A DNA stretch of 64,000 nucleotides from an uncultured cyanobacterium (GTDB lineage: Bacteria; Cyanobacteriota; Cyanobacteriia; PCC-9006; JAAUQQ01), in assembly GCA_963718615.1 (NCBI GenBank), contig OY970368.1:3552001-3616000 (forward strand), in the 5' to 3' direction. Numbering within the stretch: the stretch's first letter is position 1; the number at the start of each line of letters is the position of its first letter. The position numbers and the translations under genes are program-made. Positions 13,686-43,888 of this stretch are shown piece after piece. A model generated the notes under the pieces. The model saw only the letters and a list, made by a program, of their open reading frames with translations, searched no databases and was not told the DNA's origin.

Positions 13686-13712
13686 GGGACTCGTTAGCAA
13701 ACGCCAAAGACT

Positions 13713-23117: not shown

Positions 23118-23933
23118 CTAGAGGCCAGGGATCCGGCACAACAGATCGCGACTCACTAACCTCTCAAACTGGGCACGCATGGCTTTGGCTGAGAGGGTAT
23201 CTGAGAGTAAAACCCCTGCTTCAATATTGCGCTGATGGGCCGCCTCGGTGAAGTTGGCAGAAGTGACAAATAGCTTTTCATCATCCACCACGACGCACTT
23301 GGCATGGAGGCAGGCGCGAGGCCCAATCGCCGTTGAAAGCGACTGGGGGTCGTAGAACACCTCCGGTAGGCGATCGCCGGGCCAAATCTCATTGCGGAAG
23401 CTTTCAGAAAATTTGCGCAGCAATGCCGCATCTGAGGTTTTGCGATCGCCATAGGGCCGCTTGATGTTCATAAAAATCCGAACCTTCAGCTCAGGAATGG
23501 TCACCATACGCTCAGCTAGGGGCTGGAATAGCGCTTTGGCTTTCTTGCCTGTGTCCAGGGCGTAGCTAGAAATTAAGACGCTCTTTTGGGCGCTGTGGAA
23601 TAGCTCCTGCACCACGACTCGCGTGTCGCGGCTTTCAGTTCCGAGGACTTCTTCGCCGGTCCAGACGAGGTCGATTCCGTTGCGTTGTTCCTGGGCTTGC
23701 TTTCGCGCTTGGGCCAGCAGATTGAGCAGGTAGGCCAGATGCACAGCTTTCATGCCGTCGCCGCTGAGCTGGTTTAGCTCGGTGGCGATCGCCGTCATGA
23801 GCGAGGTGGGCACCACATTGGTCAAGCTGCTGGGTTGGCAGGGGAGCGGGATACGCCCCTGGGCGATCGCATCTGCCAGGCCTTCCAAACCAGGCCGACT
23901 TAATTGGTGAAAGGCCGAAGTCGTCTTCACCAT
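23118..23933 (-). CDS. drmC: DISARM phospholipase D-family nuclease DrmC
   Basis: LVWTG, single HKD motif HAKCVVVDD, TSANFT..A..RNIEAG; last gene after the DUF1998 gene. Confidence 0.9.
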   Translation of the reverse strand: MVKTTSAFHQLSRPGLEGLADAIAQGRIPLPCQPSSLTNVVPTSLMTAIATELNQLSGDGMKAVHLAYLLNLLAQARKQAQEQRNGIDLVWTGEEVLGTESRDTRVVVQELFHSAQKSVLISSYALDTGKKAKALFQPLAERMVTIPELKVRIFMNIKRPYGDRKTSDAALLRKFSESFRNEIWPGDRLPEVFYDPQSLSTAIGPRACLHAKCVVVDDEKLFVTSANFTEAAHQRNIEAGVLLSDTLSAKAMRAQFERLVSRDLLCRIPGL

Positions 23934-28800: not shown

Positions 28801-29359
28801 GAATCCCTTCGGTGGCGGGCAGGTCCAGTTGAGTGATGCCAGGGATGGGGTCGTTGCCGAGCAGGCTGATTTGCTCAGGGTCGTCGCTGGCTTGGGAAAG
28901 GGAGATGCAGAGGGCAGATTGGCGGGGGGTGCGTTGCCAGGGGCGGCTGGTGCTGGCTTGGAGGCGGGTTTCGGCTTCGCTCTCAGCTTCGGGTAAGGGG
29001 TGGTAGTCACCCCAGGCGCAGTCCACGTCAATTTCCGTTGTCTCGGCGCTGATGAGGAAGCTGAGGCCAAAGGAGGAGGGGAAGATGCCTTTGCGGGCGG
29101 AGGCGGCTTCGGGCTTTTCGTCGTCGTCGCCGCTGGTTGTTTTTTCAACCTGAGAGTCGAAGCTGTCGTCGCTGTCGGGGTCGGAGCGGTCCTGGAGTTT
29201 GGCTTCGTAGGGGACAAGGAAGCCGGACAGGTACCACTTGGAGGGGGCCTGGGGGATAATTTCATCGGCATGGGCGCTGTCGGGCTCAGGACCGATGAGG
29301 TCGAGCTTGAGGGCATTGATGAGAGATGACCGCACTTCTGCGGAGGTTTCTAGCGCCAT
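25820..29359 (-). CDS. drmA: DISARM SF2 helicase DrmA
   Basis: WRPFQ, FPTGGGKTEAY, YTLRLLT, IQDELH, ATNMISVGLD, YIQATSRVGR. Confidence 0.93.
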   Translation of the reverse strand: MALETSAEVRSSLINALKLDLIGPEPDSAHADEIIPQAPSKWYLSGFLVPYEAKLQDRSDPDSDDSFDSQVEKTTSGDDDEKPEAASARKGIFPSSFGLSFLISAETTEIDVDCAWGDYHPLPEAESEAETRLQASTSRPWQRTPRQSALCISLSQASDDPEQISLLGNDPIPGITQLDLPATEGIRKTIPVPGSNGLELSLSIRPINNGCGLPSGTRSVSLFLVNKRAPAALSAERDCAYIFQVQLTASSKLPFVPRPDLRTQALDDEDGRIADLQYRHDVEYAVGHNVSATAIVSATAPGEADQPQCYQASTNWMPQADVEKVLHNEEIPKVDLRIEALGDAVDADAIRGMVGGIVTAYSTWITQQQANAPTSPQQRAEVSKDLLEKAAHVNQRIEAGLKALDKPDVLEAFQIANRAVARSMRQRATHDRDDLLPENARTPIWRPFQIAFLLMNIVSIDDPENQDRETVELIFFPTGGGKTEAYLGLAAFTLVLRRLRNPGLESAGLSVLMRYTLRLLTLDQLGRAATLICALELERQQNVEKLGPWPFEIGLWVGQAATANRMGSKKDKDRTSARARTIAYQNETTPDCPIPLENCPWCGTQFGAKSFQLLPTTDQPKDLRITCLNKKKRPDGKPVCVFRRDQSLPIVTVDEPIYRRLPCFLIATVDKFANLPWIGETAGLFGKVKRYDQDGFYGAAQPNQGGALTKPLLPPDLIIQDELHLISGPLGTMVGLYETAIDALSTYQTADGQTIRPKIVASTATVRRATSQIRALFGRDTVEVFPPPGPDRRDSFFAKTVPVTEKHGRSYLGVAAQGRSLKVVLLRTYLAMLGASKKAWEEAGGRRNKDNPADPYMTLMGYFNSLRELGGSRRIVEDEVQSRLETYGDRHRQDEDLGLFLSRKINEPLELTSRVNTTKVAEAKSRLEATFHHPEDFKKAVDVVLATNMISVGLDITRLGLMVVLGQPKTASEYIQATSRVGRDDERPGLVITLLNIHRPRDRSHYERFQAWHNTFYRAVEATSVTPFSPRALDRGLPGVVVALARLGHDKLTQPLGAGAILAHRTELDFVVEALSKRAEMHDKNFDADQAEALRLKVQGIVRDLLDSWDSVAKEQEGDLQYQREVGKAPPLLFTPLDPDRPKVGPAKKFKAQRSLRDVEPTVHLWLHDPNGNEMELKS

Positions 29360-29532: not shown

Positions 29533-29548
29533 GACTCGATTTTAGGGG

Positions 29549-30925
29549 CTAATCCAGCAGGTCGAGTTGTTCGATGGCGGGGGGGATGAGGTTGAGCTGT
29601 TTGCTGGGCTTGGGGCTGGTGTTTTTGCTGGGTTTGGCTTTGGCGGGGGGTTTGGCTTTGGCTTTGGCTTTGCCGGTTTTCTTTTTGCCGTGGAGGCCGC
29701 CGCGTATTTCTGCTTCGTAGCGGGTTTGGTTGAGGTCGAGGAGGCGGGCGAGGATTTCGTCGTGGATGGCTTCGGGCCAGCGGTAGCGCCAGGGGAGTTT
29801 TTTGCGTTTTTTGAGGCTGGCTTGGATTTGGTTGTCGAAGGCGGCGGCTTGGGCGGGGTCGGCCCAGTGGAGGTCGCCGGATGCGATGCGGTCTTGGAGG
29901 TTGGGGGGGAGGTTGTCGGTTTCGATGTCGAGGTAGTCGAGGGCGAAGCCGCAGGGGATGTGGCCTTGGTCGTCGGTTTCAAGATGTTCGGTCCAGCCGT
30001 AGGCGGTGAGGACGGCTTGGTCCATTTGGCTGTGGAGGTCGCGGAGGTGGTGGATTTCGGGGTCGGTTTCTTGGGGGTCGTGGAAGCGGTTGTAGGTGTC
30101 GGTGAGACCCTGGTTGTTGCGGATCATGAGGGCGGCGCGGTAGTCGTAGTAGGCTTTGCCGATGGTTTCGAGGGTGGGGTCGGTTTCCCAGTTTTCGGGG
30201 AAGGGGAAGGTTTCGAAGCAGTCGGAGGGGGTGTAGCGGAGTCGATCTTCCAGGGATGAGCCGAAGAAGCGTGTCCAGATTTCGTGGGGTCGGGATTGGA
30301 GGGCGCAGAAGGCTGAATAGGTGGAAATTGCAATTACGATAAGCTGCTCAGAATAGACCGTTCCTGCTGACAGAAATGTGAATGATCCATGTTGACCGAC
30401 ACGAGCAACTACTAATACCCGATCGCAAGTTGCGATCGCTCTAAACAAAGCAGGCGTGGTCTCCCCAAATTGCCACCAATAACGTGCTCGAATTTCCCGA
30501 TTTTGCTTGAGTCTTGCGGGCTTAATCTTCTCCTCAACGATCGCCATCAACTCCGGCCATTCCCGCGCTTCCTCCTCGCTCATCTCCCCAAAATTAATCA
30601 CATAGCGATGATGCTCATGGGTCGGGCTACTGTTGACTTCAGAGCCACCAATATAGGGGAAAATGCGTTCCTGATTCTTGGGATTCTCGGCAATCAATCG
30701 CTGCATTTCGGCCAGGGATGTTGCCTCAGGGGCCGTATCATCAAACGTAAATCCCATGCCTAAAACATAGCTGCCGACAAAACTCTTTTCCGCATTGGCC
30801 AGCAGCACTTTCGGGTTTTCGTGACCGCCCTTGGGAAACAGAAATGCCGTGATTTTTTCGACGGGTTTGCCGTCTAGGAGAATGGGAATAGAGGGTGGCA
30901 GTGCAAAGGAGAGGTTGCTTGACAT
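29549..30925 (-). CDS. Stand-alone DrmMI C-terminal half / MmeI-like target-recognition subunit, allele B
   Basis: ILLDGKPVEKITAFLF, GMGFTFDD, PYIGG.EVN, RYVINF, WW.F, LQSRPHE.W, LRYTPSDCFETFPFP, GLTDTYNRFHDP. Confidence 0.85.
   Translation of the reverse strand: MSSNLSFALPPSIPILLDGKPVEKITAFLFPKGGHENPKVLLANAEKSFVGSYVLGMGFTFDDTAPEATSLAEMQRLIAENPKNQERIFPYIGGSEVNSSPTHEHHRYVINFGEMSEEEAREWPELMAIVEEKIKPARLKQNREIRARYWWQFGETTPALFRAIATCDRVLVVARVGQHGSFTFLSAGTVYSEQLIVIAISTYSAFCALQSRPHEIWTRFFGSSLEDRLRYTPSDCFETFPFPENWETDPTLETIGKAYYDYRAALMIRNNQGLTDTYNRFHDPQETDPEIHHLRDLHSQMDQAVLTAYGWTEHLETDDQGHIPCGFALDYLDIETDNLPPNLQDRIASGDLHWADPAQAAAFDNQIQASLKKRKKLPWRYRWPEAIHDEILARLLDLNQTRYEAEIRGGLHGKKKTGKAKAKAKPPAKAKPSKNTSPKPSKQLNLIPPAIEQLDLLD
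29720..30319. repeat. Direct repeat T, copy 1 (TRD constant region), partner 35024-35623
   Basis: 600 bp, offset 5304, about ten mismatches by eye. Gap-free similarity continues with variable patches to ~30876/36180. Confidence 0.95.
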
Positions 30926-30932
30926 AAAACTT

Positions 30933-31319
30933 CTATGGATAAGTGAGTAAGTTTAGATTGTCGATAAAGCGAAAATCCCGTTGATTTTTACTCAACAGTG
31001 CCATCTGAGCCTCCATAGCAGTCGCCGCAATCAGGGCATCTGGGATAAGTAACCCATGACTCAAAACATAGCGCTGAAGCAATTCCTGAGCACGAGCACT
31101 GATGGGCTCCGTCAGGTGGATCACCTGAAACCGCTCAACAAACCGTTCCAACTCCCTGAGCTCAGCCTTGTTTCGGCAACCCACCATCAGCTCCATCACA
31201 GTAATGACCGACACAGCCAAAGTCGAGACTTCACTCTCCTGCATCACCCGTTGCTTAGCGGTATTGTCATCATTAGAAATATCAATCAAGATATCGGTAT
31301 CCACGAGCGTTTGGATCAT
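30933..31319 (-). CDS. vapC: PIN-domain VapC toxin (cassette B)
   Basis: LVDTDILID, SVIT.MEL..G, IPDALIAATA, N.RDF. Confidence 0.9.
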   Translation of the reverse strand: MIQTLVDTDILIDISNDDNTAKQRVMQESEVSTLAVSVITVMELMVGCRNKAELRELERFVERFQVIHLTEPISARAQELLQRYVLSHGLLIPDALIAATAMEAQMALLSKNQRDFRFIDNLNLLTYP

Positions 31320-31323
31320 GTCA

Positions 31324-31809
31324 TTACCGCCACTGCTGTTCTCTTAACTGCCTAACCCAAGCTGTACTATCCTCTAGCTCTGGGCGATCTTTCCACATTC
31401 CCACAAACGCCAATCCCTCTAGATCTAAAGGCCGAGATTGCTGGTTCAATCTCTGACTCAAAGCATCATCTTCGTCAGCATCTTCACTGGACTCATCATC
31501 ATGATGCCAAGCAATCACTGAATCAATCTCCGTTTTGTGGGATCGATAATAGGCTTGCACCGCAAACAGATCAAACGGAGTTAACCCTGGAAAATTTTCA
31601 AGCAATTCGTCCTCATCCATACCTTGCTGAACCAAAGAAACCAACGTCCAAACCGCAACTCGCGTATTGCGCAAACAAGCATATCCGCCCGCCACACCCG
31701 GCGTTTTGCGAATCATATGATTGATAATGACCTCTTGAAATAAAGCATAGTCATCCTGGGGCAAAGCAACCACCGCATCGACCAAAGACTCCACCAGTTT
31801 CGGATTCAT
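31324..31809 (-). CDS. DUF433 protein fused to a DUF2281-like antitoxin tail (cassette B)
   Basis: KTPGVAGGYACLRNTRVAVW (DUF433); tail FVGMWKDRPELEDSTAWVRQLRE; ATGA overlap with the upstream MTase fragment. Confidence 0.8.
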   Translation of the reverse strand: MNPKLVESLVDAVVALPQDDYALFQEVIINHMIRKTPGVAGGYACLRNTRVAVWTLVSLVQQGMDEDELLENFPGLTPFDLFAVQAYYRSHKTEIDSVIAWHHDDESSEDADEDDALSQRLNQQSRPLDLEGLAFVGMWKDRPELEDSTAWVRQLREQQWR

Positions 31810-32621
31810 CGCCGTTTCCCTCCCGAAGTTCCTTGCTTAAAAATATGCACCACACTCACCACCACCGCCGCCAAACCGGGCCATTTATAGCGCCGCGTCG
31901 CATTGTAGATCGTCCCCCCATTTTGGCAGACAAACCGTAACCCCGTGCTGCGCGTGTCTCCCTGGGCGATCGTATTCGTGGCAATCAACCCATAGGCTCC
32001 GCCTACCCGAATAATCTCAAAGGCCCGCCGAAAGAAATAAGCCACCAAATCCGCATTGCCATGGGACTCTGGATAGCCTTCCTTCAAATAGTCCAAATAG
32101 CCTTCCGCGTTGCCATTGATGGTTGTGTTCTTTCCTGCAAACGGCGGATTCCCCACGATCGCATCAAACCCGCCATTCTCCCGAGCAAACACCTCCGGAA
32201 ACTCCACCTCCCAACTAAACGGAACCACCGGCTTCTCCCGCTCCCGCAACTGCCCCGCGATCGCCACCATCCGCTCCGGCTGCGATCGCACCACCTGGCT
32301 ATACTCCGACACCAACAATTCCCGATCCTTCTTACTCTTGCCAAAACCATCGAAGGTTGCCGCGATCGCCACATCCCCCTGCATCCGCACCTGCAACAAC
32401 TTCGCTTCCGCATCCTGCCACTGCCGATACTTCAAATCCGCATCCCCATCCGACAACGTATCCCCCGACTGAATCTTCGACCTCAACACCGTCGCCGCCA
32501 AAATCTGCTCCTGCCCATACTTCATCAACGGCAAATCCTGAATCGGGTCCCGCCCAAAAGCCACAATCTTCTTCCGCGTCAGCCCCACCAACAAATCCAC
32601 ACACTTAAATGCATGGTCCAT
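31806..32621 (-). pseudogene. 5'-truncated duplicate of the drmMI catalytic 3' end (271 aa, intact frame)
   Basis: Near-identical to the last ~265 aa of 37034-39823. Has GNPPF but lacks the SAM-binding motif; GDSL is changed to VDLL. Confidence 0.8.
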
Positions 32622-32634
32622 AAATGTAAATGGC
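31845..32634. repeat. Direct repeat M, copy 1 (MTase 3' region), partner 37055-37844
   Basis: ~790 bp, offset 5210. Near-identical core, more divergent edges. Confidence 0.95.
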
Positions 32635-32698
32635 GGTAGTCCTCTGGCGGTAAGGACTGCACCGCTTCGACAAGGGATTCTACGACTTTGGTGTTCAT
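32579..32698 (-). pseudogene. Truncated third DUF433-antitoxin 5' stub fused out of frame to the MTase fragment
   Basis: MNTKVVESLVEAVQSLPPEDY aligns with MNPKLVESLVDAVVALPQDDY and MSTKFAESLAEAVVALPKEDY, then runs into repeat M and stops after 39 aa. Confidence 0.8.
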
Positions 32699-32756
32699 GG
32701 GCTTTAAGTTGAGAACAAAGGAGGCGATCGCTATCTGCTTCAGAGAAGTTAAGCGG

Positions 32757-33608
32757 CTAATTTCCTCCGTTTAGCTGCCTGAGATAATTGATAAAAGCAA
32801 TCTTTTCTTCATCAGTCATCTCCCGACGACTATTCTTCTGATAGGTTTGCTGAATATGCTGTTGTGCCTGTGGAATATCCCAGCCTGCAAGCTTCATTTC
32901 AATCCGAATTTGCGCATTAAGTGACAACTCAATCACACCAGCAATGAGTTTCCAGCAGGGTTTAGGAGGGCCAGTCCAGTCATCAAATTCATGTGGCAGG
33001 CTCAGGCTCAGGGTAATTAGGCAGGGGCCTTCTGGAACAGAACCCTGATCCAACTGATGCAACAAGATAGTATCAGTGAGGGTGAGTTTATTAAAAGACA
33101 AGCCATTTCTCATAGAAAAAGATCCTTTCCATTGCGTCCCACCATTGCGTCTTCGGGAAGAAATAATTTCGAGTTTATCCGTATATACAAGTTCTAAAGT
33201 CTTACGGTCAGGAAATGATAAGGCTTGCAGATCAGCAATCGGAACATATTTATAGGAGTTGTGGAGAATTGGTGAGCCGAAGTTTATAAATTCGACAACA
33301 TCGTCAACACTTGCTTTTCGCACGAATGTCCAATCACCAGTCAGAATTGAGCGATTTTCACATTCAAAGTCAAAGTCTGGCCCTGTTGTATCTAATGGGA
33401 TTTCCAACACATCCAGTAATTCAACTTCAACAAGCGTGAGCATATTGCCATCATCAATTACGGGCGTCGCACTAGGGACTCTACCGTCTTCAGGATGTTC
33501 ATCAGAAACAGGTCGAATCCATTGCCCTGATGCAGGTTCAATGCCAGCAACGCATCGTTCGCTGTACTTGGCGGAATTGGCCAAGCAAATAATTTGAGTA
33601 AGGCCCAT
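32757..33608 (-). CDS. Dual OB-fold-like protein with short C-terminal helical domain
   Basis: IICLANS.K...RCVAGI...GQWIRPVS, EN......W, C.KLIAGVI, as recalled for DUF488-associated dual-OB proteins; AT-rich. Confidence 0.65.
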   Translation of the reverse strand: MGLTQIICLANSAKYSERCVAGIEPASGQWIRPVSDEHPEDGRVPSATPVIDDGNMLTLVEVELLDVLEIPLDTTGPDFDFECENRSILTGDWTFVRKASVDDVVEFINFGSPILHNSYKYVPIADLQALSFPDRKTLELVYTDKLEIISSRRRNGGTQWKGSFSMRNGLSFNKLTLTDTILLHQLDQGSVPEGPCLITLSLSLPHEFDDWTGPPKPCWKLIAGVIELSLNAQIRIEMKLAGWDIPQAQQHIQQTYQKNSRREMTDEEKIAFINYLRQLNGGN

Positions 33609-33623
33609 GATTTAATACCAAAC

Positions 33624-34091
33624 TTAGAGATGATGAATATCGATGCATCCCCATTTCTCATTCAAATACTCGGCAACCAGGCGTCTGTGGCAGTGATGCG
33701 GCTTGGCCTCGCTACAAAGTAAGCAGCTACTATCCACTAAATCGGGTGACAAAACTTTTTCAATTTCACGTTTGTTCATCAGATCAATGAATTGGCTCTC
33801 ATATATTTGCCATTCACCTTTCTGCTTCTTAAAGGTGTCAAGGATATCTTTAGTAGGGGCTAACTCGGGAATATGGACATACTCAATATTCCCAATTTCT
33901 TTTAGAAAATAAGCGAGGTCGTCGCGCTTAGAGAAACCTGCGAGCTGGGAAACGTTATTCAAGCGCGTATCAATTACGCGACGAACCCCAGACTTGAGTA
34001 GCAGCTCAAAAAACTGTTGGGCTGTTTTTTGGGTAAAGCCAATCGTGAATAGGTCAATGGGTTGAGTCATGGTTGCGTTCAACGTAGGCAA
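33624..34091 (-). CDS. DUF488 family protein
   Basis: FTIGFTQK.A..FF, IDTRLNN.SQLAGF.K, CLLCSE...HHCHRRLVAEYL. Confidence 0.88.
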   Translation of the reverse strand: MPTLNATMTQPIDLFTIGFTQKTAQQFFELLLKSGVRRVIDTRLNNVSQLAGFSKRDDLAYFLKEIGNIEYVHIPELAPTKDILDTFKKQKGEWQIYESQFIDLMNKREIEKVLSPDLVDSSCLLCSEAKPHHCHRRLVAEYLNEKWGCIDIHHL

Positions 34092-34746
34092 TACGATCGC
34101 CCTGACGGGTGTAAGCCTCTTGGATGGCCTCTGCTAGAGAGAGCGGTTTGAGGACAGCGACAGAATGATCGGATATCGAATTGCTGGTAGAGCTATGAAA
34201 CAAACTCAGTTGGGCTGGTTCTGGTGCTTCAATAGGTTGACCGAGGGCATCTGCCAACCCATTTGCTCGGAGCAGACGTTCTTCTAAATGCTGATGTGTC
34301 TCTAGCTCGCCATTGTGCCAGATATGGTTGATGTCTAGGGAGAAGGGCTTTAGATGTTGGCAAACTAAAACAGCGCGATGGCAAGTAAGCGGATCTTTTT
34401 CCGCACACATGAGCGCTACATCGAACTTTTGGCTACCACTGATGACACGATCAATACCTTGAGCAAAGGCACCAGTAGCGGCGATGCGCTCATATAACGC
34501 TTTCCCATCTACATAGCAGCTTTCATCATCAGGACGGGCTCCCAGCTCGCGCCCAAGAAACACGTAACGAATGCCAGCTTTTTGGAGAGCATCTTTCAAA
34601 GGCTTTTGGCAGAAGTGAGGCATGTAGCGGCTATAGGGGGTAGACCGAACATCCGCTAGAGCGGTTACCTCATGCTGCTTGAGCAGGGCAATGAAAGTGT
34701 CAATATCATGATTGGAATGACCAATCGTGTACAACTTGTTTGACAT
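34054..34746 (-). CDS. DUF488 family protein
   Basis: YTIGHSNH, DVRS.PYSR, LG.ELG.R, LMCAEKDPL.CHR. Confidence 0.9.
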   Translation of the reverse strand: MSNKLYTIGHSNHDIDTFIALLKQHEVTALADVRSTPYSRYMPHFCQKPLKDALQKAGIRYVFLGRELGARPDDESCYVDGKALYERIAATGAFAQGIDRVISGSQKFDVALMCAEKDPLTCHRAVLVCQHLKPFSLDINHIWHNGELETHQHLEERLLRANGLADALGQPIEAPEPAQLSLFHSSTSNSISDHSVAVLKPLSLAEAIQEAYTRQGDRIAYVERNHDSTH

Positions 34747-34779
34747 GCTACGGGTTGGGAGGGACTGCCTATGGCCTCA

Positions 34780-34785
34780 ATTATA
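34780..34785 (-). promoter_or_regulatory. Candidate -10 box (TATAAT) for the DUF488 cassette
   Basis: Perfect TATAAT ~35 bp upstream of the ATG at 34746; no clear -35. Confidence 0.35.
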
Positions 34786-34882
34786 GGGAAGTTGCATAGC
34801 AGAAAAGATTTAGCTAGAGTTAAGATCTGAGCTGCTGATGAATCTACGGAGGCGGGTTTGGAGGGGGATCGTTGGACGTATT

Positions 34883-36214
34883 CTAGTCATGGTCAAGTAA
34901 TCCTGGAATAGTCGGAAAGTCAGGGTCGGGGGCTGATTTAGTCCGCTTAGTTTTGCTCTTGGTGGATGTTCCTTTTTGAGAAACCTTCTTCGCCGCCTTG
35001 TGCCCGAGCACCTCTTCCTCGTGGCGGGTTTGGTTGAGGTCGAGGAGGCGGGCGAGGATTTCGTCGTGGATGGCTTCGGGCCAGCGGTAGCGCCAGGGGA
35101 GTTTTTTGCGTTTTTTGAGGCTGGCTTGAATCTGGTTGTCGAAGGTGGCGGCTTCGGCGGGGTCGGCCCAGTGGAGATCGCCGGATGCGATGCGGTCTTG
35201 GAGGTTGGGGGGGAGGTTGTCGGTTTCGATGTCGAGGTAATCGAGGGCGAAGCCGCAGGGGATGTGGCCTTGGTCGTCGGTTTCGAGATGTTCGGTCCAG
35301 CCGTAGGCGGTGAGGACGGCTTGGTCCATTTGGCTGTGGAGGTCGCGGAGGTGGTGGATTTCGGGGTCGGTTTCTTGGGGGTCGTGGAAGCGGTTGTAGG
35401 TGTCGGTGAGACCCTGGTTGTTGCGGATCATGAGGGCGGCGCGGTAGTCGTAGTAGGCTTTGCCGATGGTTTCGAGGGTGGGGTCGGTTTCCCAGTTTTC
35501 GGGGAAGGGGAAGGTTTCGAAGCAGTCGGAGGGGGTGTAGCGGAGTCGATCTTCCAGGGATGAGCCAAAGAAGCGTGTCCAGATTTCGTGGGGGCGGGAT
35601 TGTAGGGCGCAGAAGGCTGAATATGTGTCGAGAGCGCAAACGATCAGAGCTTCAGAAAAAACCATATTTGGGAGCACAAAGGTCAGTCCCCAATTTGGCT
35701 GATGGCGAGAGATGACTAATACCCGATCGCAAGTTGCGATCGCTCTATACAAAGCAATTCGTTTCTCGCAAAAATGCCACCAAAGACGACGATATATTTC
35801 TCGTTTATCTAGTAATCTTTGAGGCTTAACTTTCGCTTCTACGATCGCCATCAACTCCGGCCATCCCCGCGCCTCCTCCTCACTCATCTCGCCAAAGTTA
35901 ATTACATAGCGTCGATGCTCGTGGGTTGGACTACCATTTACCTCAGAACCACCAATGTAAGGGAAAATGCGTTCCTGATTCTTAGGATTTTCCGCAATCA
36001 ATCGCTCCATTTCGGCGAGGCTTGTCGCTTCCGGATTCGTATCATCAAACGTAAATCCCATGCCTAAGACAATGCTGTCTTGAAAACTCTTTTCCGCATT
36101 GGCCAGCAGCACTTTCGGGTTTTCGTGACCGCCCTTGGGAAACAGAAACGCGGTGATTTTTTCGACGGGTTGGCCGTCGAGAATAATTTCGGGTTGATAT
36201 GGCATTGAAATCAT
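34883..36214 (-). CDS. Stand-alone DrmMI C-terminal half / MmeI-like target-recognition subunit, allele A
   Basis: Paralog of 29549-30925; ATGA overlap with the upstream PIN stop. Confidence 0.85.
   Translation of the reverse strand: MISMPYQPEIILDGQPVEKITAFLFPKGGHENPKVLLANAEKSFQDSIVLGMGFTFDDTNPEATSLAEMERLIAENPKNQERIFPYIGGSEVNGSPTHEHRRYVINFGEMSEEEARGWPELMAIVEAKVKPQRLLDKREIYRRLWWHFCEKRIALYRAIATCDRVLVISRHQPNWGLTFVLPNMVFSEALIVCALDTYSAFCALQSRPHEIWTRFFGSSLEDRLRYTPSDCFETFPFPENWETDPTLETIGKAYYDYRAALMIRNNQGLTDTYNRFHDPQETDPEIHHLRDLHSQMDQAVLTAYGWTEHLETDDQGHIPCGFALDYLDIETDNLPPNLQDRIASGDLHWADPAEAATFDNQIQASLKKRKKLPWRYRWPEAIHDEILARLLDLNQTRHEEEVLGHKAAKKVSQKGTSTKSKTKRTKSAPDPDFPTIPGLLDHD
35024..35623. repeat. 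Direct repeat T, copy 2
   Basis: Matches 29720-30319. Confidence 0.95.
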
Positions 36215-36597
36215 CTAATTAGCTTTACGTCATACTGATCGAAGACCTTATCCACACTCACAAGTCCGATATCTTCAACCATCGCCTGAGCAATGATCAA
36301 GCGGTCAAATGGATCGCGATGATGGAAAGGTAACGCTGATACTGTCTTTAGATGCTTTATTTCAATGGGTAATAGAGTGATTTTGTTTATCCTAATTTGC
36401 TCGTTCAAAAACGGTTGAAACTCTTCTTCTAAAGATAACTTTCCAACGCTCACCTTAATTGCAATTTCCCATATACTCGCAATGCTTAGCAAAATATCAA
36501 CCTCAGATTCCAATAGCCTTCTGGTGGTAGAGTCTAGCTGCGGGCTGCGGGCAATAAACCATAGGAAAATATGAGTGTCTATTAATACGCTCATCAC
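36211..36597 (-). CDS. vapC: PIN-domain VapC toxin (cassette A)
   Basis: LIDTHIFLW, SIASIWEIAIK...GKL, HHRDPFDRLIIAQA. Confidence 0.92.
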   Translation of the reverse strand: MMSVLIDTHIFLWFIARSPQLDSTTRRLLESEVDILLSIASIWEIAIKVSVGKLSLEEEFQPFLNEQIRINKITLLPIEIKHLKTVSALPFHHRDPFDRLIIAQAMVEDIGLVSVDKVFDQYDVKLIR

Positions 36598-37028
36598 ATG
36601 TAGTCCTTAAAATCCTCTAGAGGCTCATCAAAATCGGGAGACATCCAGATTTTTCCAGCAGCACTTCCGGCCTGCCGATACGATTGATTAGGCTGATCCA
36701 GTTCATCCCAGTCGTCATTGTGCTGACTGACAATCTCTGCATCAATTTCAGCTTTATTCGCCTGATAGTAAGCTCGCATGGCTAAAAGATCGAAGCGAGT
36801 TAAGTCGGGATAATTTTGCAGTAGCTCTGCATCGTCCATCCCCTGATTTATAAAAGAAATCAGCAACCATACCGCAATTCGCGTATTCCGAATGCAGGCA
36901 ACACCGCCGACAACACCCGGCGTTTTACGAATCAATTTATTGGTAAGTGTCTCTTGGAATAAGTCATAGTCTTCTTTGGGCAAAGCCACTACAGCCTCAG
37001 CTAGCGATTCCGCAAATTTCGTACTCAT
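36594..37028 (-). CDS. DUF433 protein fused to a VapB/DUF2281-like antitoxin tail (cassette A)
   Basis: ATG 37028 follows an AAGGAGG RBS inside the MTase end. KTPGVVGGVACIRNTRIAVW; tail RQAGSAAGKIWMSPDFDEPLEDFKDYM overlaps the PIN start. Confidence 0.82.
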   Translation of the reverse strand: MSTKFAESLAEAVVALPKEDYDLFQETLTNKLIRKTPGVVGGVACIRNTRIAVWLLISFINQGMDDAELLQNYPDLTRFDLLAMRAYYQANKAEIDAEIVSQHNDDWDELDQPNQSYRQAGSAAGKIWMSPDFDEPLEDFKDYM

Positions 37029-37033
37029 ACGCG

Positions 37034-39823
37034 CTAATTTCCCTCCTTGAACACATGCACCACACTCACCACCACCGCTGCTAACCCCGGCCACTTGTAG
37101 CGCCGGGTCGCATTGTAAATTATCCCCCCATTTTGGCAGACAAACCGTAACCCCGTGCTGCGCGTGTCGCCCTGGGCGATCGTATTCGTCGCAATCAATC
37201 CATAGGCTCCACCCACCCGAATAATCTCAAAGGCCCGCCGAAAGAAATAAGCCACCAAATCCGCATTGCCATGGGACTCTGGATAGCCTTCCTTCAAATA
37301 GTCCAAATAGCCTTCCGCGTTGCCATTGATGGTTGTGTTCTTTCCTGCAAACGGCGGATTCCCCACGATCGCATCAAACCCGCCATTCTCCCGAGCAAAC
37401 ACCTCCGGAAACTCCACCTCCCAACTAAACGGAACCACCGGCTTCTCCCGCTCCCGCAACTGCCCCGCGATCGCCACCATCCGCTCCGGCTGCGATCGCA
37501 CCACCTGGCTATACTCCGCCACCAACAATTCCCGATCCTTCTTACTCTTGCCAAAACCATCAAACGTTGCCGCGATCGCCACATCCCCCTGCATCCGCAC
37601 CTGCAACAACTTCGCCTCCGCATCCTGCCACTGCCGATACTTCAAATCCGCATCCCCATCCGACAACGTATCCCCCGACTGAATCTGCGACCTCAACACC
37701 GTCGCCGCCAAAATCTGCTCCTGCCCATACTTCATCAACGGCAAATCCTGAACCGGATCGCGCCCAAAGGCCACAATCTCCTTCCGCGTCAACCCCACCA
37801 ACGAATCGCCACACTTTAGCGAGTGATCCACAAACGTAAACGGCAAATCCCGCGCCAACGTCACCAACCACAGTGACAACTTCGCCAAATTCACCGCAAA
37901 GGGATTCTTATCCACCCCATACAAACAACGCTGCGCCACCAACCGCCGCGCATACAACAACGGTTCCACCGCATCCGGCACATCCCCCGGCATCCCGTGA
38001 TAATCCCAAGCCGCCACCAACCGCTCCGCCAACTGCCGACAAACCTCCACCAAAAAGGCAGCCGACCCCATCGCCAAATCACAAACCTTCAGCTCCAAAA
38101 TCTGCTCCGCCGTCGGCTGCGCCCCCAACCGCTCAAAAATAGGCCGCAACGTCGTCTCCACAATCGGCTGCGTCAACTTACGCGGCGTATAATGCGACCC
38201 CGTCCGCCGCCGCTCCTCCCCCGGCTGCAAATACAACGCCCCCGGCATCAACACCTGCAATGTCCGCTCCGACACCCGCCGCTCCAGCGCCGCCAGAATA
38301 TCCGCAACAGTCTCCGCCTCCTTCAACGCCGTCGCCCCCTTCCCCGACAGCGTCAGCTCCCCCGCCTCCTTCAACCACTTCGCCCGGTCCTTCGGCTTCT
38401 GGGCCAGCAAATCCTCCAGATTAATCACCACATCCTTCGGCTTCACCGCAATGGACTGCGCCTTAGCAATCTCCACCTCATAACCCATAATCGCCTCATA
38501 CACCGAGCCGATCTGCTCCACATCCAACGCCCGATAACTCAGCCGCTCCCCATTCAAAATCAGCAGCTTCTGGAGCATCCGGTAGATGACGCCGTCAGCA
38601 ATGCGAGGAATCTCTCCATTCCCCTCCAAAAACGCATACTCCGCCGGATCAAACAATTGCCCATGCCGCGCAGGCAAATAAGCCTCATAGCTCCCACCCC
38701 CGTCATACACCAGCCGAAACAAACTCAACAGCCAAGCCCAAGCCCCATAGCGATCTTCCATCGTGTCGTGGAAAGCACCATCGTCATCGCGCAGTTTTTC
38801 ATACAACCCCGAAACCGAATAATTCCCCTGATACACCGCATCATCCGGCATCAGCCCCTGGTCCTCCGCATACAGCAAAAACACCAGCCGCATCAGCGTC
38901 GTCAACAGCCCGCCATAGACATGCTGCGGATTGGCCTCGGCTAAAGCCTTCAGTTCACTGACCTGAGCCTCACCCTGCCGATCATCCCGCTTGGCATCCG
39001 CCGCCTGAAAGCCCCGCAACAACTCCCACAGCGCATCCAACACCTGCTCCGCCAACTGCGTCGAAACATTCGCCTGGTAAGCCCGACTCGCCTCTAGCAA
39101 CTTCGGCAACGTCCGCTCCCTCGGCGCATTCCACAGCCGATCCGCCCCCAGCAACATCTCCAGCGCCCCCAAAATCAGCCGCCCCGGCACCTCCGTCATC
39201 GCCTCAATCGGGAACGTAATATGCCCGCTCGACTCCCCACTGGGCGCATAAACCAACCGCAAAGCAACCCCATTCCACAAGATCCCAATGGGAACATTCA
39301 CCCCCTTCAACAGCCGCTCAAACTTCTGCTGCGGACTCGCCTTCCAGCCGCCTGATCCACCCTGGCTCCCCGCATTCGGATCTTCCCCATCCAAATCCCG
39401 CCCCAGGGGCACCACCTTCACCAGCAGCAAATAGCCCTCACTATCCAGGTCCACCACCCCATACTGGGGCCGCAGCACCTCGCCATAATCCGACAGATTC
39501 ACCTCCAGCGAGGCAGGCAAATCCGCCTCCGCCACCACATCTGCCGCCTCCCACTCCAGCACCTGCTCCGCAAAGGGCAGAAACTCCGGCACGTACGTTA
39601 TGGGGCTCTGCTCCTTGCCATCTCGCTGAACCTCTGCCGCCTGAAGCCCAGGCAACAGCTCCTGCTGCACCAACCCCTGCAACACCGGCTGCAACCGCAA
39701 CGCACTGCTCTTATCCACAAAGGCCTGCTTATCCGCCAACGCCGGAGGCGACACCACAAGACCCTCCGGCTGCAACAGCCCCAGCCATTCGCGATGTAGA
39801 TATTGCTCGTTGTCGTAGGCCAT
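37034..39823 (-). CDS. drmMI: DISARM adenine methyltransferase DrmMI, N-terminal/catalytic part lacking the TRD
   Basis: RLVFLLYAED, LDVEQIGSVYE, RRRTGSHYTP, DLAMGSAAF (SAM motif), LYGVDKN, GNPPF (motif IV); ends at VVHVFKEGN*. Confidence 0.88.
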   Translation of the reverse strand: MAYDNEQYLHREWLGLLQPEGLVVSPPALADKQAFVDKSSALRLQPVLQGLVQQELLPGLQAAEVQRDGKEQSPITYVPEFLPFAEQVLEWEAADVVAEADLPASLEVNLSDYGEVLRPQYGVVDLDSEGYLLLVKVVPLGRDLDGEDPNAGSQGGSGGWKASPQQKFERLLKGVNVPIGILWNGVALRLVYAPSGESSGHITFPIEAMTEVPGRLILGALEMLLGADRLWNAPRERTLPKLLEASRAYQANVSTQLAEQVLDALWELLRGFQAADAKRDDRQGEAQVSELKALAEANPQHVYGGLLTTLMRLVFLLYAEDQGLMPDDAVYQGNYSVSGLYEKLRDDDGAFHDTMEDRYGAWAWLLSLFRLVYDGGGSYEAYLPARHGQLFDPAEYAFLEGNGEIPRIADGVIYRMLQKLLILNGERLSYRALDVEQIGSVYEAIMGYEVEIAKAQSIAVKPKDVVINLEDLLAQKPKDRAKWLKEAGELTLSGKGATALKEAETVADILAALERRVSERTLQVLMPGALYLQPGEERRRTGSHYTPRKLTQPIVETTLRPIFERLGAQPTAEQILELKVCDLAMGSAAFLVEVCRQLAERLVAAWDYHGMPGDVPDAVEPLLYARRLVAQRCLYGVDKNPFAVNLAKLSLWLVTLARDLPFTFVDHSLKCGDSLVGLTRKEIVAFGRDPVQDLPLMKYGQEQILAATVLRSQIQSGDTLSDGDADLKYRQWQDAEAKLLQVRMQGDVAIAATFDGFGKSKKDRELLVAEYSQVVRSQPERMVAIAGQLREREKPVVPFSWEVEFPEVFARENGGFDAIVGNPPFAGKNTTINGNAEGYLDYLKEGYPESHGNADLVAYFFRRAFEIIRVGGAYGLIATNTIAQGDTRSTGLRFVCQNGGIIYNATRRYKWPGLAAVVVSVVHVFKEGN
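37055..37844. repeat. Direct repeat M, copy 2
   Basis: Matches 31845-32634. Confidence 0.95.
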
Positions 39824-39879
39824 GGTGATGATTCGGGGAACTTGTCAGGGAAACTCGGTCAGCATTCAGCAGAATTCGC

Positions 39880-40470
39880 TCAGCTCGGTTCGTTTGAGGC
39901 TGAGTCAAACACAATGTCTTCGTAAATGGCTTCGATGGGAAACGTTAAATCAACCGACTGAAGCTCAACCGAATCACCAGCTTGATAGTTGAGAATTTGC
40001 CAAGCATCCTGAGCCGTTCTGCGAAAGATTTCGATTGAGATCGCTTCTGAATTCACCAAAACGTACTCTTGCAGATTCGGATTTTGTCGATACATTCTGA
40101 ACTTATCGCCTCGGTCATAGGCCTCCGTCGAAGGCGAGAGCACTTCAATCACTAGGCAGGGATAGGTAATGAACTGCTTCGTTGTTTTATCACGCGGATC
40201 ACAGGTGACGCTGAGGTCAGGGTAAACATAGTCAGTTGAATTCAAAATGCTGACCCTAGCATCGGAATTGAGAACCTTGCAGCCGCTGCCTCGCATGTGG
40301 GCTTTTAGCACAGCGCCGAAGTTGATCGAGATTTCACTGTGATTAATCGTTCCGCCGCTCATGGCATAGACTTCACCGTTGAGATATTCATGGCGATGGA
40401 GCTGCTGTTCCTCCCAAGCGAAATATTCCTCGGGCGTTAATTTGGGAAACTTTTCTTTTGCGACAACCAT
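39880..40470 (-). CDS. Uma2 family (DUF820) putative endonuclease
   Basis: T.EEY..WE...RHEY.NG.VYAMSGGT..H, YPD..VTCD, IEVLSPSTEAYDRG.KF..YR. ATG 40470 is preferred over the ORF-track start. Confidence 0.92.
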   Translation of the reverse strand: MVVAKEKFPKLTPEEYFAWEEQQLHRHEYLNGEVYAMSGGTINHSEISINFGAVLKAHMRGSGCKVLNSDARVSILNSTDYVYPDLSVTCDPRDKTTKQFITYPCLVIEVLSPSTEAYDRGDKFRMYRQNPNLQEYVLVNSEAISIEIFRRTAQDAWQILNYQAGDSVELQSVDLTFPIEAIYEDIVFDSASNEPS

Positions 40471-40570
40471 GATTAATCCCCTGTTCGTTGAATCAACTCG
40501 TTGAAACTCAACTGACACCTCAAAATTCTATCGGTGTAGCTCCTGAATCGGTTTGGCACTGATTCAGCTC

Positions 40571-43500
40571 CTAACTCGTCACCGGCCAGAGATAGACCAG
40601 TCCCACCGGCTCCACCCGCGTTGCTTTGACCTGGTAAGCCTTGCGAATCCGCTCCGGCTCCGTCTCAATTTCTTGCGCCAACATTTCCAAGCGCTTCTCC
40701 CAGTGCCGTCGGTCCGAGGCGAGCTGACGCTTCTCCGATTCCGCAAAGGCCAAAGTCATCTGTTGAGAATCCTGGTCCGTCTTCTGCTGCTGGCGACGAA
40801 TGCGATCGCGCTGCTCCTCCAGCAACTGCTTCATCTCCTTGGCTTCGCGATCGCCCCGCTCCGCCAGCTTCTTCTCGGCCTCCGCCGTCAGCGTCTTAAC
40901 CATGTCATCCAGATGAGAGGCCAAATCCTTCACATCCTGGGGGGCCGACTGTTGCAGCCGCTGCCGAACAGTCTCCGGCACATCCCGCAAACGAGGATTG
41001 GCTAAGGACTCTTCCAGGATTTGAAGGACTTCTCGCGTGGTGCGATCGCCCAAGACCTGCAAGCCCTCCCGCGCCTCCGGCGACCTCCACCGCGCCACCA
41101 CCGACACCACCTCATCATGGAGCCGCGCTGCCCCATCGCCATAGAGCGACAGCCGCCCCAGCATAATCACCCGAGGAATCGCCGTATCGGTCAAGCAAAC
41201 ACAGGCCCGCGTCAAATCATCATGGACAAAGCCCTGGGACAGGAAGCGCCCCAGCAGCCGCTGCACCAGCCGCTGCTCCAGATGCAAATGCACCGCCTCC
41301 CCATCCAGCGTGCCGGAATCGCGAAAAATCACCGGACGAATGGAAGCTTCTTTACGCCATTCCCACAGCTTCTGCCCCCGCTGACGCGGAGCCCGCAGCG
41401 TATCCAGGGTCGCCGCCCAGGTGGGGTCATTGCCCAGGCGCTCATCCAAGGCCGGAATCTCCCAACGAGCCAGGTCTGGATTGTCCAATGCCTCCTGGCT
41501 CGACATCGGTGCCAATGGTTGAGCACCTAGCACTTCCAGCGAGGCTGAGAGGGCATCGCGAAAAAAGCTGTCCTTGAACCCCAGCCATTTGTGGGAGCTG
41601 TCGAGGATGTTTTGCAGTTGCTTCTCTTGCTCTAGAAGGGCCTGGTGGCGATCGCGCATGACATCCAGTTCTTCACTGATCACCTGTCCCTTATCCAGCG
41701 AATCCCCATCCGCCTGATCCGCCTGGCGCAGCGCATCTGACAGCCTCGCCTCATCCTCCGCCCGAATGCCGTTTTTCAACAGCTTCGAAACAGTCTTCTC
41801 CACCACAGGCGACAGACTGCCTAGCTCCTCATGGATGGTCTTGGTTTTCTCCACCAGCACATCCAGCACCCGGTCCTCCGCCCGCTGGGGATAGACAAAA
41901 TAATGGCAGTGAACCACCTTGGCCTTCTGCAACTTCCGGTCAATGCGGCCATTGCGCTGCTCCATCCGGCTGGGGTTCCAGGGCACATCGAAGTGGAACA
42001 ACTCCGAGCAATAGTTCTGAAGGTTCACCCCCTCCCGCGCCGCATCCGTGGCAATCAAAATCCGCAGGGGATGCTTGGCCGGGTCCGCATTAAAGGCCGC
42101 TTTGATCTGCTCCCGCCGTTCATCCCCCATACCGCCATGGAAGGTGCCAATGCGATTATCCGCATCATCGGAGCCTTGGATTAACGCCTCCAGTTGCTGC
42201 TGCAAATAGCGCTTGCTGTCGGTGTACTCCGTGAAAAATAAGACCCGCTGGTGATTCCACTGGGCTCCCGTCTCACCCAGGTTAGGGCAAAGATTCGCCT
42301 TCAACCAAGCCTTGAGATAGGCAATGCGGCCATCGGCTTGGTGTCGTGCTGCGATCGCAATCTGGGTCATCTCCTCCAGCAGTTCCAGCTCTCGTTCGGT
42401 CACACCGCCGCCGCTAAACTGAGTCGCCGCTGACATCTGGGCATCTTCTTCCTGTTCGATATCGGCTTCATCGAGATCCGCGCGATCGTCATCGTTCCCC
42501 GCCGCCTCCGCCAATAGCGAGAGCCTTCCCTGGACCAACCCAGGAGCGGCCATGGCCTGAGCCGGTCGCTCTACCGCCTGGCGCTTCATTGCCTGGCGAT
42601 GTACCCGCAGCGTCCGCGAAAACGCTTCAATCGACGACAGCAGTCGTTTCTGCAACGACAACATCACTAGCATCGCCGCTGCCCGAGAAGACGTTGTGGC
42701 ATCCTTGAGCCTGGCTTCTCGACAATTGCGATACTCCTGCAACAGCCGCGATAACACTAGCTCCGGCGCATCCTCAGGCAGGTTATCAATCCGCACCGCA
42801 ATCACCTCCCGCTTCGGGAAGTCCGCATTCTTAATTTCCCGCAAATCCTGCTTCAGCCGCCGCACCATCACCCCATCCAGCAGCGCCTTACTGCGCACCG
42901 GCACCCCTCGACAAAACCGCTGGGGGTCCAAAATCTCCAGCAGCGCTGCAAAGCTATTGGAATGGCCATTGTGGGGCGTCGCCGATAGAAACAGCCGATG
43001 CTCAAACATCGGAGCCAGCTCCCGCACCGTCCGCGTTAGCTGGGAATCCACCGCATATTTAGAACTGCTGGCCGGAGCCGCATTGTGGGCCTCATCCAAA
43101 ATCAGCATCGACCCCGCCGAAAGCTGCTGCCCCCCCTCGGTCAGCCAATCCCGCAGGGGTGCCGCATAGCTCTCATTGCGCAGCAGCGCATGGGAAATGA
43201 TGAAACGGTTATGGGTCTTCCAGGGATTGATACCATAGCCCCGCTCCCGCCGCCGCGCCGCCACAAAGGCCCGGTCATAAATCGTGAACGTCAAGCCAAA
43301 GCGGCTCTCCATTTCATCCTTCCACTGCTGCACCACAGACGGCGGACAGAAAATCACCACCCGCTTAATCTTTTGCCGCAGCAGCATCTCCCGCAGAATC
43401 AACCCCGCCTCAATCGTCTTGCCCAGGCCCACATCATCGGCAATGAACAGATTCACCCTGGGCATCCGCAGCGCCTTGCGCAGGGGCTCCAACTGGTAAG

Positions 43501-43888
43501 CCTTAACCTCAATCCCAGCCCGGTAGGGTGCTTGAAACAGGCGAGCATCGGTCGAGGTCACACAGTTCCAGCGCAGCGTGTGGAAATAGGCCGAGAAATA
43601 GCGGGGGTCATCAAACCCACGGCTCACCACCGAATCCCAAGTCGCAGCACTCAGCAACTGCGCATCAATCTCCCGCTCCCAAAACACCTCCAGCTTCTCG
43701 CCCTGGGCATCGTCTTCGACGCAGGCCAGGCTGACGAGGGTATCCCCCTCAGCATCCGCCGGGGGCGATACATTCTCCACGAGATATTGACGCGATCGCA
43801 CCCGCACCAGTCGTCCTGGCTTGAGTCCATCCGAATCTGCCCCTGCTGTCGCTGCTGTCCCAATTGCCCCGGTCATAGAGATCGCCAT
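40571..43888 (-). CDS. drmD: DISARM SNF2-like helicase DrmD
   Basis: PG.LVRVRSR, YQLEPL, IADDVGLGKT, DEAH, SATPHNG, TDAAREGVNLQ, PWNPSRMEQRNGRIDR. Confidence 0.92.
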   Translation of the reverse strand: MAISMTGAIGTAATAGADSDGLKPGRLVRVRSRQYLVENVSPPADAEGDTLVSLACVEDDAQGEKLEVFWEREIDAQLLSAATWDSVVSRGFDDPRYFSAYFHTLRWNCVTSTDARLFQAPYRAGIEVKAYQLEPLRKALRMPRVNLFIADDVGLGKTIEAGLILREMLLRQKIKRVVIFCPPSVVQQWKDEMESRFGLTFTIYDRAFVAARRRERGYGINPWKTHNRFIISHALLRNESYAAPLRDWLTEGGQQLSAGSMLILDEAHNAAPASSSKYAVDSQLTRTVRELAPMFEHRLFLSATPHNGHSNSFAALLEILDPQRFCRGVPVRSKALLDGVMVRRLKQDLREIKNADFPKREVIAVRIDNLPEDAPELVLSRLLQEYRNCREARLKDATTSSRAAAMLVMLSLQKRLLSSIEAFSRTLRVHRQAMKRQAVERPAQAMAAPGLVQGRLSLLAEAAGNDDDRADLDEADIEQEEDAQMSAATQFSGGGVTERELELLEEMTQIAIAARHQADGRIAYLKAWLKANLCPNLGETGAQWNHQRVLFFTEYTDSKRYLQQQLEALIQGSDDADNRIGTFHGGMGDERREQIKAAFNADPAKHPLRILIATDAAREGVNLQNYCSELFHFDVPWNPSRMEQRNGRIDRKLQKAKVVHCHYFVYPQRAEDRVLDVLVEKTKTIHEELGSLSPVVEKTVSKLLKNGIRAEDEARLSDALRQADQADGDSLDKGQVISEELDVMRDRHQALLEQEKQLQNILDSSHKWLGFKDSFFRDALSASLEVLGAQPLAPMSSQEALDNPDLARWEIPALDERLGNDPTWAATLDTLRAPRQRGQKLWEWRKEASIRPVIFRDSGTLDGEAVHLHLEQRLVQRLLGRFLSQGFVHDDLTRACVCLTDTAIPRVIMLGRLSLYGDGAARLHDEVVSVVARWRSPEAREGLQVLGDRTTREVLQILEESLANPRLRDVPETVRQRLQQSAPQDVKDLASHLDDMVKTLTAEAEKKLAERGDREAKEMKQLLEEQRDRIRRQQQKTDQDSQQMTLAFAESEKRQLASDRRHWEKRLEMLAQEIETEPERIRKAYQVKATRVEPVGLVYLWPVTS

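Follow-up and report, generated by a model that had tools for sequence, protein, structure and literature searches.

A split DrmMI methyltransferase in a cyanobacterial DISARM operon

The 64,000-nucleotide stretch of an uncultured cyanobacterium analysed here (hereafter the window; positions 3,552,001 to 3,616,000 of contig OY970368.1, assembly GCA_963718615.1) carries on its minus strand a complete class I DISARM defence operon, in the order drmD-drmMI-drmA-drmB-drmC, in which the adenine methyltransferase (MTase) gene drmMI is divided into two open reading frames (ORFs), one for the catalytic part and one for the target recognition domain (TRD), with a toxin-antitoxin (TA) type gene pair between them. 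This division is a real, selected and recurrent fission of DrmMI with a gap for exchangeable cargo, and represents a variant of a known system. We interpret it as a DrmMI allele, from cyanobacterial class I DISARM, that underwent natural fission and whose two products would act together as a two-subunit enzyme, a reading to which we assign a probability of about 0.7.

The catalytic half is a 929-aa ORF (37034..39823; this and all other operon features given below lie on the minus strand) that matches the PADLOC DrmMI model (1e-300) and the Pfam Eco57I/MmeI_Mtase families. It comprises an N-terminal domain and the whole gamma-class N6-adenine MTase core, with motif I (DLAMGS) and NPPF, both (near-)invariant among split homologs, and stops just past the last beta-strand, with the split signature ATRRYKW...VH described below present. 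As claimed in an initial annotation made from the sequence alone, the break falls between MTase and TRD: the MTase ORF ends in ...AAVVVSVVHVFKEGN* (stop codon at 37034-37036) and a stand-alone TRD (TRD1, 34883..36214), composed of an MmeI-type TRD (Pfam PF20466) and a helical C-terminal region, begins as MISMPYQPEIILDGQPVEKITAFLF. The locus therefore departs from the single polypeptide of type IIG/IIL (MmeI-like) enzymes. The collinearity that the annotation had expected was also found, as the MTase covers positions 4-981 and the TRD positions 982-1340 of PADLOC's single-chain DrmMI model, PDLC02643.

The two small genes between the halves show a VapBC-type arrangement, with a small antitoxin gene upstream of, and tightly linked to, a PIN-domain gene (NCBIfam VapB/VapC matches being below the cutoffs). 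The first (36594..37028) encodes a 144-aa antitoxin-like protein with a DUF433 module and a VapB/DUF2281 tail (Pfam PF04255 and PF10047; NF050009 partial, below cutoff), and the second (36211..36597) a putative PIN (VapC-like) toxin (Pfam PF01850, 3e-16). The TA pair was thus correctly placed by the initial annotation, and the ribosome-binding site that it had noted in the last MTase codons is present too, as a Shine-Dalgarno (SD)-like AAGGAGG (37042..37048) with an anti-SD pairing energy of -11.7 kcal/mol and a long spacing of 13 nt to the antitoxin ATG. The supposed chain of ATGA overlaps from antitoxin to PIN to TRD had to be abandoned, since in this first copy ATGA occurs at the PIN/TRD junction alone; MTase and antitoxin are separated by a 5-nt gap, and antitoxin and PIN meet at GTGA/TGATG. 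Moreover, homologous stand-alone TRDs with the same N-terminus begin M-x-YQP, so the conserved start of TRD1 is probably its second Met, Met4 (36205), which lies 5 nt beyond the stop codon of the PIN gene, and not Met1, which overlaps that stop by ATGA.

Further along the operon, a second copy of the junction is broken at the identical point (VVHIFKQG.../ILLDGKPVEKITAFLF), as the initial annotation had stated. There, a fragment of the MTase gene and antitoxin-like gene 2 (31324..31809, 161 aa; Pfam and sequence comparison) overlap by ATGA, and gaps of 4 nt and 7 nt follow, on either side of PIN (VapC-like) putative toxin gene 2 (30933..31319; Pfam). The contention that this copy holds a different TA pair stands for the antitoxin tails and for the PIN proteins, which have no significant similarity to each other (E=26), and falls for the N-terminal DUF433 module, which the two antitoxins share (~70% DNA identity; proportions of nonsynonymous and synonymous differences, pN and pS, of 0.20 and 0.65). 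Both antitoxin genes look chimeric, with a common DUF433 module, unlike tails and an unrelated PIN gene next to them, as if a crossover had occurred within the antitoxin gene. On the whole, what the initial annotation had observed was partly confirmed.

Recurrence of the fission and its junction signature

The break is not a matter of chance, because the same point recurs in other genomes. We surveyed species-representative genomes and retained the best 80 of 579 candidate loci (L001-L084 denote loci and P labels proteins), among which 9 were split, 56 fused and 15 unclassifiable, leaving 65 classifiable ones. The split loci belong to eight named cyanobacteria plus one unassigned organism, and none of the 17 classified non-cyanobacterial loci was split. 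At the protein level, 51 of the best 120 MTase homologs end 17-31 residues past the W of WPGxAxV, 49 run on for more than 300 residues and 20 are of other or unmatched type; the best-named homologs are cyanobacterial. A search with the TRD (243-776 aa) found the TRD start near the N-terminus in 102 of the best 120 matches, and 96, the window's two included, are Met-started stand-alone TRDs once a Met start is required and 4 likely pieces of fused genes are dropped, counts that the split query and the length limits bias in favour of split forms. The gap measures 617-1961 bp in the seven fully spanned split loci and its genes differ from locus to locus: DUF2281+PIN, MazE-like+PIN, XisI, a nucleotidyltransferase, ribbon-helix-helix+PIN, DUF433 and MazF-like genes, with transposases in L005. 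Fission at one site recurs in many cyanobacteria, and the cargo of the gap is variable, mostly of toxin-antitoxin type and in the same orientation. The four plasmid records examined were all fused, and a TRD search of plasmids found one place per record among the 40 listed of 107. Judging from the locus tags JJU32_01325 and JJU32_01330, one split may exist whose halves are not separated by any annotated gene (unverified), and MTase-end fragments on long contigs of Chamaesiphon minutus and Synechococcus sp. PCC 6312 might represent additional second cassettes or genes interrupted in some other way.

The split forms share a signature on both sides of the break. With patterns drawn from these same data after inspection, AT[RK]R[YH][KR]W ahead of the last strand marks 49 of 53 split MTases and none of the 88 fused ones, and an ILLDGxPVxxITAF-type start marks 82 of 94 split TRDs and none of the 72 fused ones. 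Within the 60-70% background identity bin, split pairs are more alike at the junction than fused pairs are (identity of 0.82 against 0.59 in the TRD and of 0.86 against 0.73 in the MTase), and a sliding scan, from which 13 non-cyanobacterial or picocyanobacterial loci were excluded, located split/fused differentiation at MTase residues 881-920 and TRD residues 1-20 only. The last 29 residues of the window MTase are 83-86% like those of split proteins and 62-69% like those of fused ones.

A FastTree phylogeny of the MTase N-terminal region (148 rows) implied 21 changes of state, at least 16 of them across starred well-supported branches, and a single split clade, that is, one origin of split backbones, was rejected (approximately unbiased test, p=1.6e-80, 26-row subset); the MTase C-segment tree (114 columns) was poorly resolved and was used only qualitatively. 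The simplest reading is that one main fission took place and that its junction was spread by homologous recombination, convergent interface residues being the alternative to a spreading junction. Under the former, the split junction (~40 residues of the MTase end, the cargo and ~20 residues of the TRD start) would be carried from one drmMI backbone to another by homologous recombination within the conserved arms of MTase and TRD, a process that would also exchange the variable segments of TRDs. The TA genes would ride along as they do at other operon junctions and may stabilise the cassette.

Possible translational coupling and the toxin-antitoxin genes

The initial annotation further proposed that TRD expression depends on translation through the toxin gene. 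In the window this is plausible: the starts of TRD1 and TRD2 lack an SD sequence (-0.3 to -1.0 kcal/mol), which fits reinitiation, and follow the upstream gene by gaps of at most 7 nt. It does not hold in general. Among ten TRD starts, seven lie no more than 7 nt from the upstream stop and three lie at 35, 51 and 266 nt without any SD, and the gene directly upstream is a PIN toxin in seven cases, antitoxin-like in two (L013 and L024) and unassigned in one (L015), so three have no recognised toxin ahead of them.

A stronger claim, compatible with a two-subunit enzyme and weakly supported, would make the TA pair a functional switch, in which TRD synthesis obligatorily needs translation of the toxin gene and TA autoregulation or toxin activation sets DrmMI activity. 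The missing SD sequences of TRD1 and TRD2, the short gaps in seven of ten cases and the equally frequent PIN gene directly upstream are in line with it, as is the occurrence, in the window and in L001 and L010, of a strong SD-like motif where the MTase gene ends. However, besides the three distant starts and the upstream genes of L013, L024 and L015, the MTase start itself has no SD, and the TRD starts, with a predicted accessibility of 0.49-0.63, are no less accessible than other starts (0.36-0.65). In addition, among 66 ORFs scanned, TA-type pairs occur after the fused gene, between drmMI and drmA, in L002, L003, L041 and L055, and the presence of TA genes at this ordinary junction of fused loci points to hotspot cargo rather than to a designed switch. 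We consider obligatory control of this kind unlikely. The TA genes are likely hotspot cargo, with coupling likely at this locus and no design rule behind it.

The hinge and the two-subunit question

The cut in drmMI falls in the hinge loop that joins the MTase core to the TRD. In the fused L006 protein as modelled by AlphaFold2 (predicted local distance difference test, pLDDT, 72; predicted template modelling score 0.45), the break corresponds to a loop between the last MTase strand (residues 407-416) and the hairpin that opens the TRD (423-430); Foldseek gave MmeI as the best PDB match, with a weak global fit (E 1e-11, TM 0.32). Most fused proteins have a motif-to-motif distance of 31-35 residues across this region, and 13 natural in-frame expansions reach up to 159 (a 14th long value was a mis-match and was not counted), with insertions in the hinge loop of fused relatives of up to ~127 residues, which argues for a permissive loop, and the corresponding region of BrxX forms a flexible hinge (PMC11842806). 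The fused L012, L020, L042, L043, P0097, P0104 and P0208 carry long, partly repetitive in-frame insertions in this loop, possibly precursors or re-fusions of the split form. A second permissive site is apparent in the split MTases P0041, P0064, P0070, P0074, P0093, P0094 and P0100, where a PF04480 (very-short-patch-repair endonuclease-like) domain is inserted in frame.

In the two-subunit enzyme that we propose, both halves would be translated from a shared operon mRNA, at this locus probably with tight start/stop coupling, and would associate again without a covalent link. The split-specific residues, carried by the two final MTase strands and the N-terminal hairpin of the TRD, would provide a docking surface, or else reflect shared junction ancestry, and the predicted complex would methylate adenine at the site specified by the TRD, like single-chain DrmMI. 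The interpretation offered by the initial annotation, a stable two-subunit enzyme with a built-in cargo slot, is partly supported.

The two halves might instead be selected without forming a stable heterodimer and come together solely when bound to DNA or to a DrmD/DrmAB scaffold; alternatively, the free TRD might serve as a non-methylating site sensor. In BrxX, MTase and TRD are connected via a flexible hinge (PMC11842806); with such a hinge the MTase-TRD interface may be small, and a stable heterodimer is not guaranteed. In DISARM, unmethylated sites enhance defence and loss of the methylases leaves it robust (10.1101/2021.12.28.474362). A model of the TRD alone, with pLDDT <50 over most of residues 1-48, says little either way. 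Yet the split-specific residues co-occur on both sides of the break, on adjacent secondary-structure elements, and the catalytic motifs of split MTases are invariant, and we regard halves that fail to pair stably as rather improbable.

Selection on the two halves

Both halves remain under purifying selection. By the Nei-Gojobori method, the median dN/dS is 0.163 for split TRDs (n=8; 24 of 28 pairs unsaturated) and 0.165 for fused TRDs (n=18; 115 of 153 pairs), the variable middle segment of the TRD being alike in both (0.36 split, 0.37 fused), and split MTase ends (n=10) have a value of 0.088; given non-independent pairs and near-saturated dS, these figures reflect long-term constraint, and a loss in this strain alone would escape them. 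Recurrence at one site, varied cargo, fused-like purifying selection and the split-specific junction signature all uphold the proposal that this is a selected split with a cargo slot and not a disrupted gene. Of the two signs of decay that the initial annotation had named together, one was found, namely an intact closest MTase relative (P0001, 86% overall), and the other, relaxed selection, was not.

Several points weigh against our interpretation, in addition to the bias of the TRD search, the limits of the dN/dS comparison and the hinge-type linkage mentioned above. After clustering at 50% identity, the split N-terminus appears in 2 of the best 150 representatives, a narrow variant, so that the fused form is the general state and the split one a narrow derivative. 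No empty slot was directly seen, cargo being present in all seven fully spanned split loci. Four of the 53 split MTases have no signature and may derive from independent breaks. The fused P0001 provides the closest MTase backbone (93% over the N-terminal part), which indicates that the split is recent on this backbone. Finally, loss of drmMI is tolerated in DISARM and causes no autoimmunity (10.1101/2021.12.28.474362), so that inactive copies could persist.

This tolerance, together with the fused nearest backbone and the existence of inactive, disrupted genes in the MmeI family (PMC2731913), is what could be invoked for a disrupted gene, that is, TA modules entering a permissive spot and inactivating drmMI, with both halves now decaying. 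Nevertheless, a single break with dedicated starts and a common signature is shared across divergent cyanobacteria, dN/dS equals that of the fused forms and both TRD ORFs of the window are intact; the dN/dS and signature results largely refute decay, which we hold to be very unlikely. Restoration of one chain through loss of the insert, whether at the level of DNA (excision), RNA (splicing) or translation (ribosomal bypass), is scarcely credible, because, even if the halves are collinear with no domain missing and excisable elements occur in cyanobacteria, MTase tails and TRD leaders are free to vary in length and sequence. An excisable element, insertion sequence or intron was likewise rejected: there are no flanking direct or terminal inverted repeats, no Rfam match at 29000-41000 and no recombinase in the ORFs scanned.

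A second cassette with another TRD

The two cassettes of the window are direct repeats with divergent cores and near-identical arms (12 mismatches over 601 bp in the MTase arm and 11 over 594 bp in the TRD C-terminal arm). Duplication as an assembly artefact was ruled out by the differing cores and the scattered arm mismatches, and a programmed-inversion shufflon by the direct orientation of both long repeats and the absence of any recombinase among 15 ORFs scanned. As read from its sequence, copy 2 is not a second enzyme: it consists of an MTase fragment (31806..32634, the upstream homology arm; a 271-aa ORF from 32621) with NPPF and no motif I, plus a second stand-alone TRD (TRD2, 29549..30925). 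One methyltransferase may thus use two TRDs and, as the TRD is a separate gene, both could be expressed together. The first ~100 bp of the fragment are unlike copy 1 at otherwise invariant codons, the remainder being ~98% identical, and a 5' stub of a third DUF433-type antitoxin gene (32635..32698, recognised by eye from its likeness to antitoxin N-termini) is joined to it out of frame, as a rearrangement scar. TRD1 and TRD2 are 86% identical and differ mainly at residues ~125-195 (pN 0.33 there), which by analogy with MmeI and BrxX presumably form the base-reading segment.

The only other case among the 80 loci is L045, where a second TA-led TRD gene follows drmA and is cut by the edge of the locus (8418-14052; the drmA ORF, of 1480 aa with ~300 extra N-terminal residues, is followed by an antitoxin-like gene, PIN and the second stand-alone TRD). 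A tandem second cassette would supply a second TRD, as alternative subunit or recombination donor, and recombination between the arms would delete or convert a cassette.

The slot also coincides with a mirror-image synonymous skew. At four-fold sites of the coding strand, genes upstream of it are G-rich (MTase +0.73) and those downstream C-rich (TRD1 -0.59, drmA -0.65), as compared with -0.12 +/- 0.20 in 65 chunks of other window genes. The skew spans 25820-43888 of the window and is strong in most cyanobacteria; simple C-to-T deamination is disfavoured as its cause, the sites having G for C rather than being T-rich (G 336, C 52, T 44, A 21 at four-fold sites of the MTase), and HIP1 sites are not enriched in the arms. 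With related loci and groups set by title words, the MTase arm exceeded the TRD arm in all 6 split and all 30 fused non-picocyanobacterial cyanobacterial loci (by more than 1 in 28 of these 36), in all 8 picocyanobacteria-like loci (never by more than 1) and in 16 of 21 loci of other bacteria (one by more than 1). It occurs, then, regardless of split or fused state. The pattern resembles replication converging on the slot and, speculatively, would fit repeated recombinational repair there.

These observations can be combined into a more ambitious scenario, which we advance tentatively and consider possible at best. A mobile split-junction allele would have made a monomeric MmeI-type DISARM MTase into a modular two-subunit enzyme, one catalytic subunit serving several TRDs at once (two here, and perhaps so in L045) and hence several motifs; the gap would be a recombination-fed slot for defence cargo, and the mirror skew the footprint or the promoter of directed recombination.

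Other genes of the operon and its surroundings

The remaining content of the operon is that of class I DISARM: the core genes drmA, drmB and drmC, preceded by drmD and the adenine MTase gene drmMI, here as two ORFs. All four single-ORF components exceed their NCBIfam cutoffs, namely the SNF2-like helicase gene drmD (40571..43888; NF038317, 1168 bits against a cutoff of 610; PADLOC DrmD), the helicase gene drmA (25820..29359; NF038325, 1204 against 950), drmB of the DUF1998 family (23937..25823; NF038324, 607 against 240) and the phospholipase D-like drmC (23118..23933; NF038319, 200 against 133). From drmD to drmA, the operon contains a Uma2-family gene (39880..40518; Pfam PF05685, 2e-42), cargo between drmD and drmMI, then the 929-aa MTase half, the DUF433/VapB-like gene, PIN, TRD1, a DUF488-DUF488-Dual-OB triplet, the 271-aa MTase fragment, the second DUF433 gene, the second PIN and TRD2. 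The triplet (32757..34746; Pfam), cargo between the two cassettes, corresponds to the PADLOC candidate system PDC-M45 A/B/C (Dual-OB plus two DUF488 genes), which sits nested within the DISARM operon. A scan for promoters and terminators over 29300-40600 remained at chance level (6 vs 8.8 and 13 vs 12.0, respectively). Directly upstream of drmD lies a UvrD-like helicase gene (43893-45989, minus strand) whose N-terminal region has no Pfam hit, and an ORF at 54110-55567 has a short internal repeat (55155-55390; 86 bp, 74%) reminiscent of repeat-domain proteins.

Relation to known systems and implications

The closest described counterpart is the class I DISARM DrmMI of Serratia sp. SCBI, which methylates ACACAG (10.1101/2021.12.28.474362). 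Gene set and order are alike and the adenine MTase is homologous along both halves, whereas the present enzyme, known from sequence, is encoded by two ORFs with cargo between them and a second TRD. MmeI, the best match of the TRD in both sequence and fold, and its type IIL/IIG family (PDB 5HR4; PMC2731913) share a gamma-class MTase followed by a single TRD that ends at FPFP and a helical region; the difference is that MmeI has both in a single polypeptide, MTase first, whereas the TRD of the window has a gene of its own. Type I HsdM/HsdS and BcgI-type (IIB/IIG) systems (PMC2731913, PMC3077401, PMC6158711) likewise place specificity on a separate, translationally adjacent subunit that recombination can swap. 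Their S subunits, however, have two TRDs and recognise bipartite sites, in contrast to the single MmeI-type TRD found here, derived by fission of a fused gene; in Pfam searches it gave a single MmeI_TRD match and no Methylase_S match, unlike an HsdS-type subunit with two TRDs and conserved spacers.

A BREX PglX of Brevibacterium casei is split beside its variable region, and inversion-shuffled drmMI loci vary their specificity through repeats (PMC9881135); that split is at the C-terminal end of the variable region and switching proceeds by inversion, whereas the window has direct repeats, a cut on the N-terminal side of the TRD and genes inside the gap. Conserved arms around divergent TRD cores, and TRD numbers that can rise or fall, are also features of TRD replacement by domain movement (PMC3077401), although here the exchanged unit can include a gene break and whole TA genes. 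We found no report of this split or of the skew in the open-access literature; entries for comparable loci may exist in REBASE or in the original DISARM paper.

According to current descriptions, a type IIG/IIL-like methyltransferase is one chain, and a new specificity arises when its TRD is mutated or recombined in cis. A constrained and widespread natural fission at the MTase-TRD hinge would, if true, be a ready-made plug-in specificity system, and makes it testable whether several TRDs can serve one MTase and whether the TRD by itself is what DISARM uses to sense sites. It would also be an extant example of the step, fission or fusion, that has been postulated to link the type I and type IIG architectures, and the flip in skew may mark recombination hotspots from single genomes. 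Annotation pipelines are apt to take such ORFs for truncated genes or 'hypothetical proteins', and as a result the methylation motifs and transformation barriers of cyanobacteria may have been assigned wrongly.

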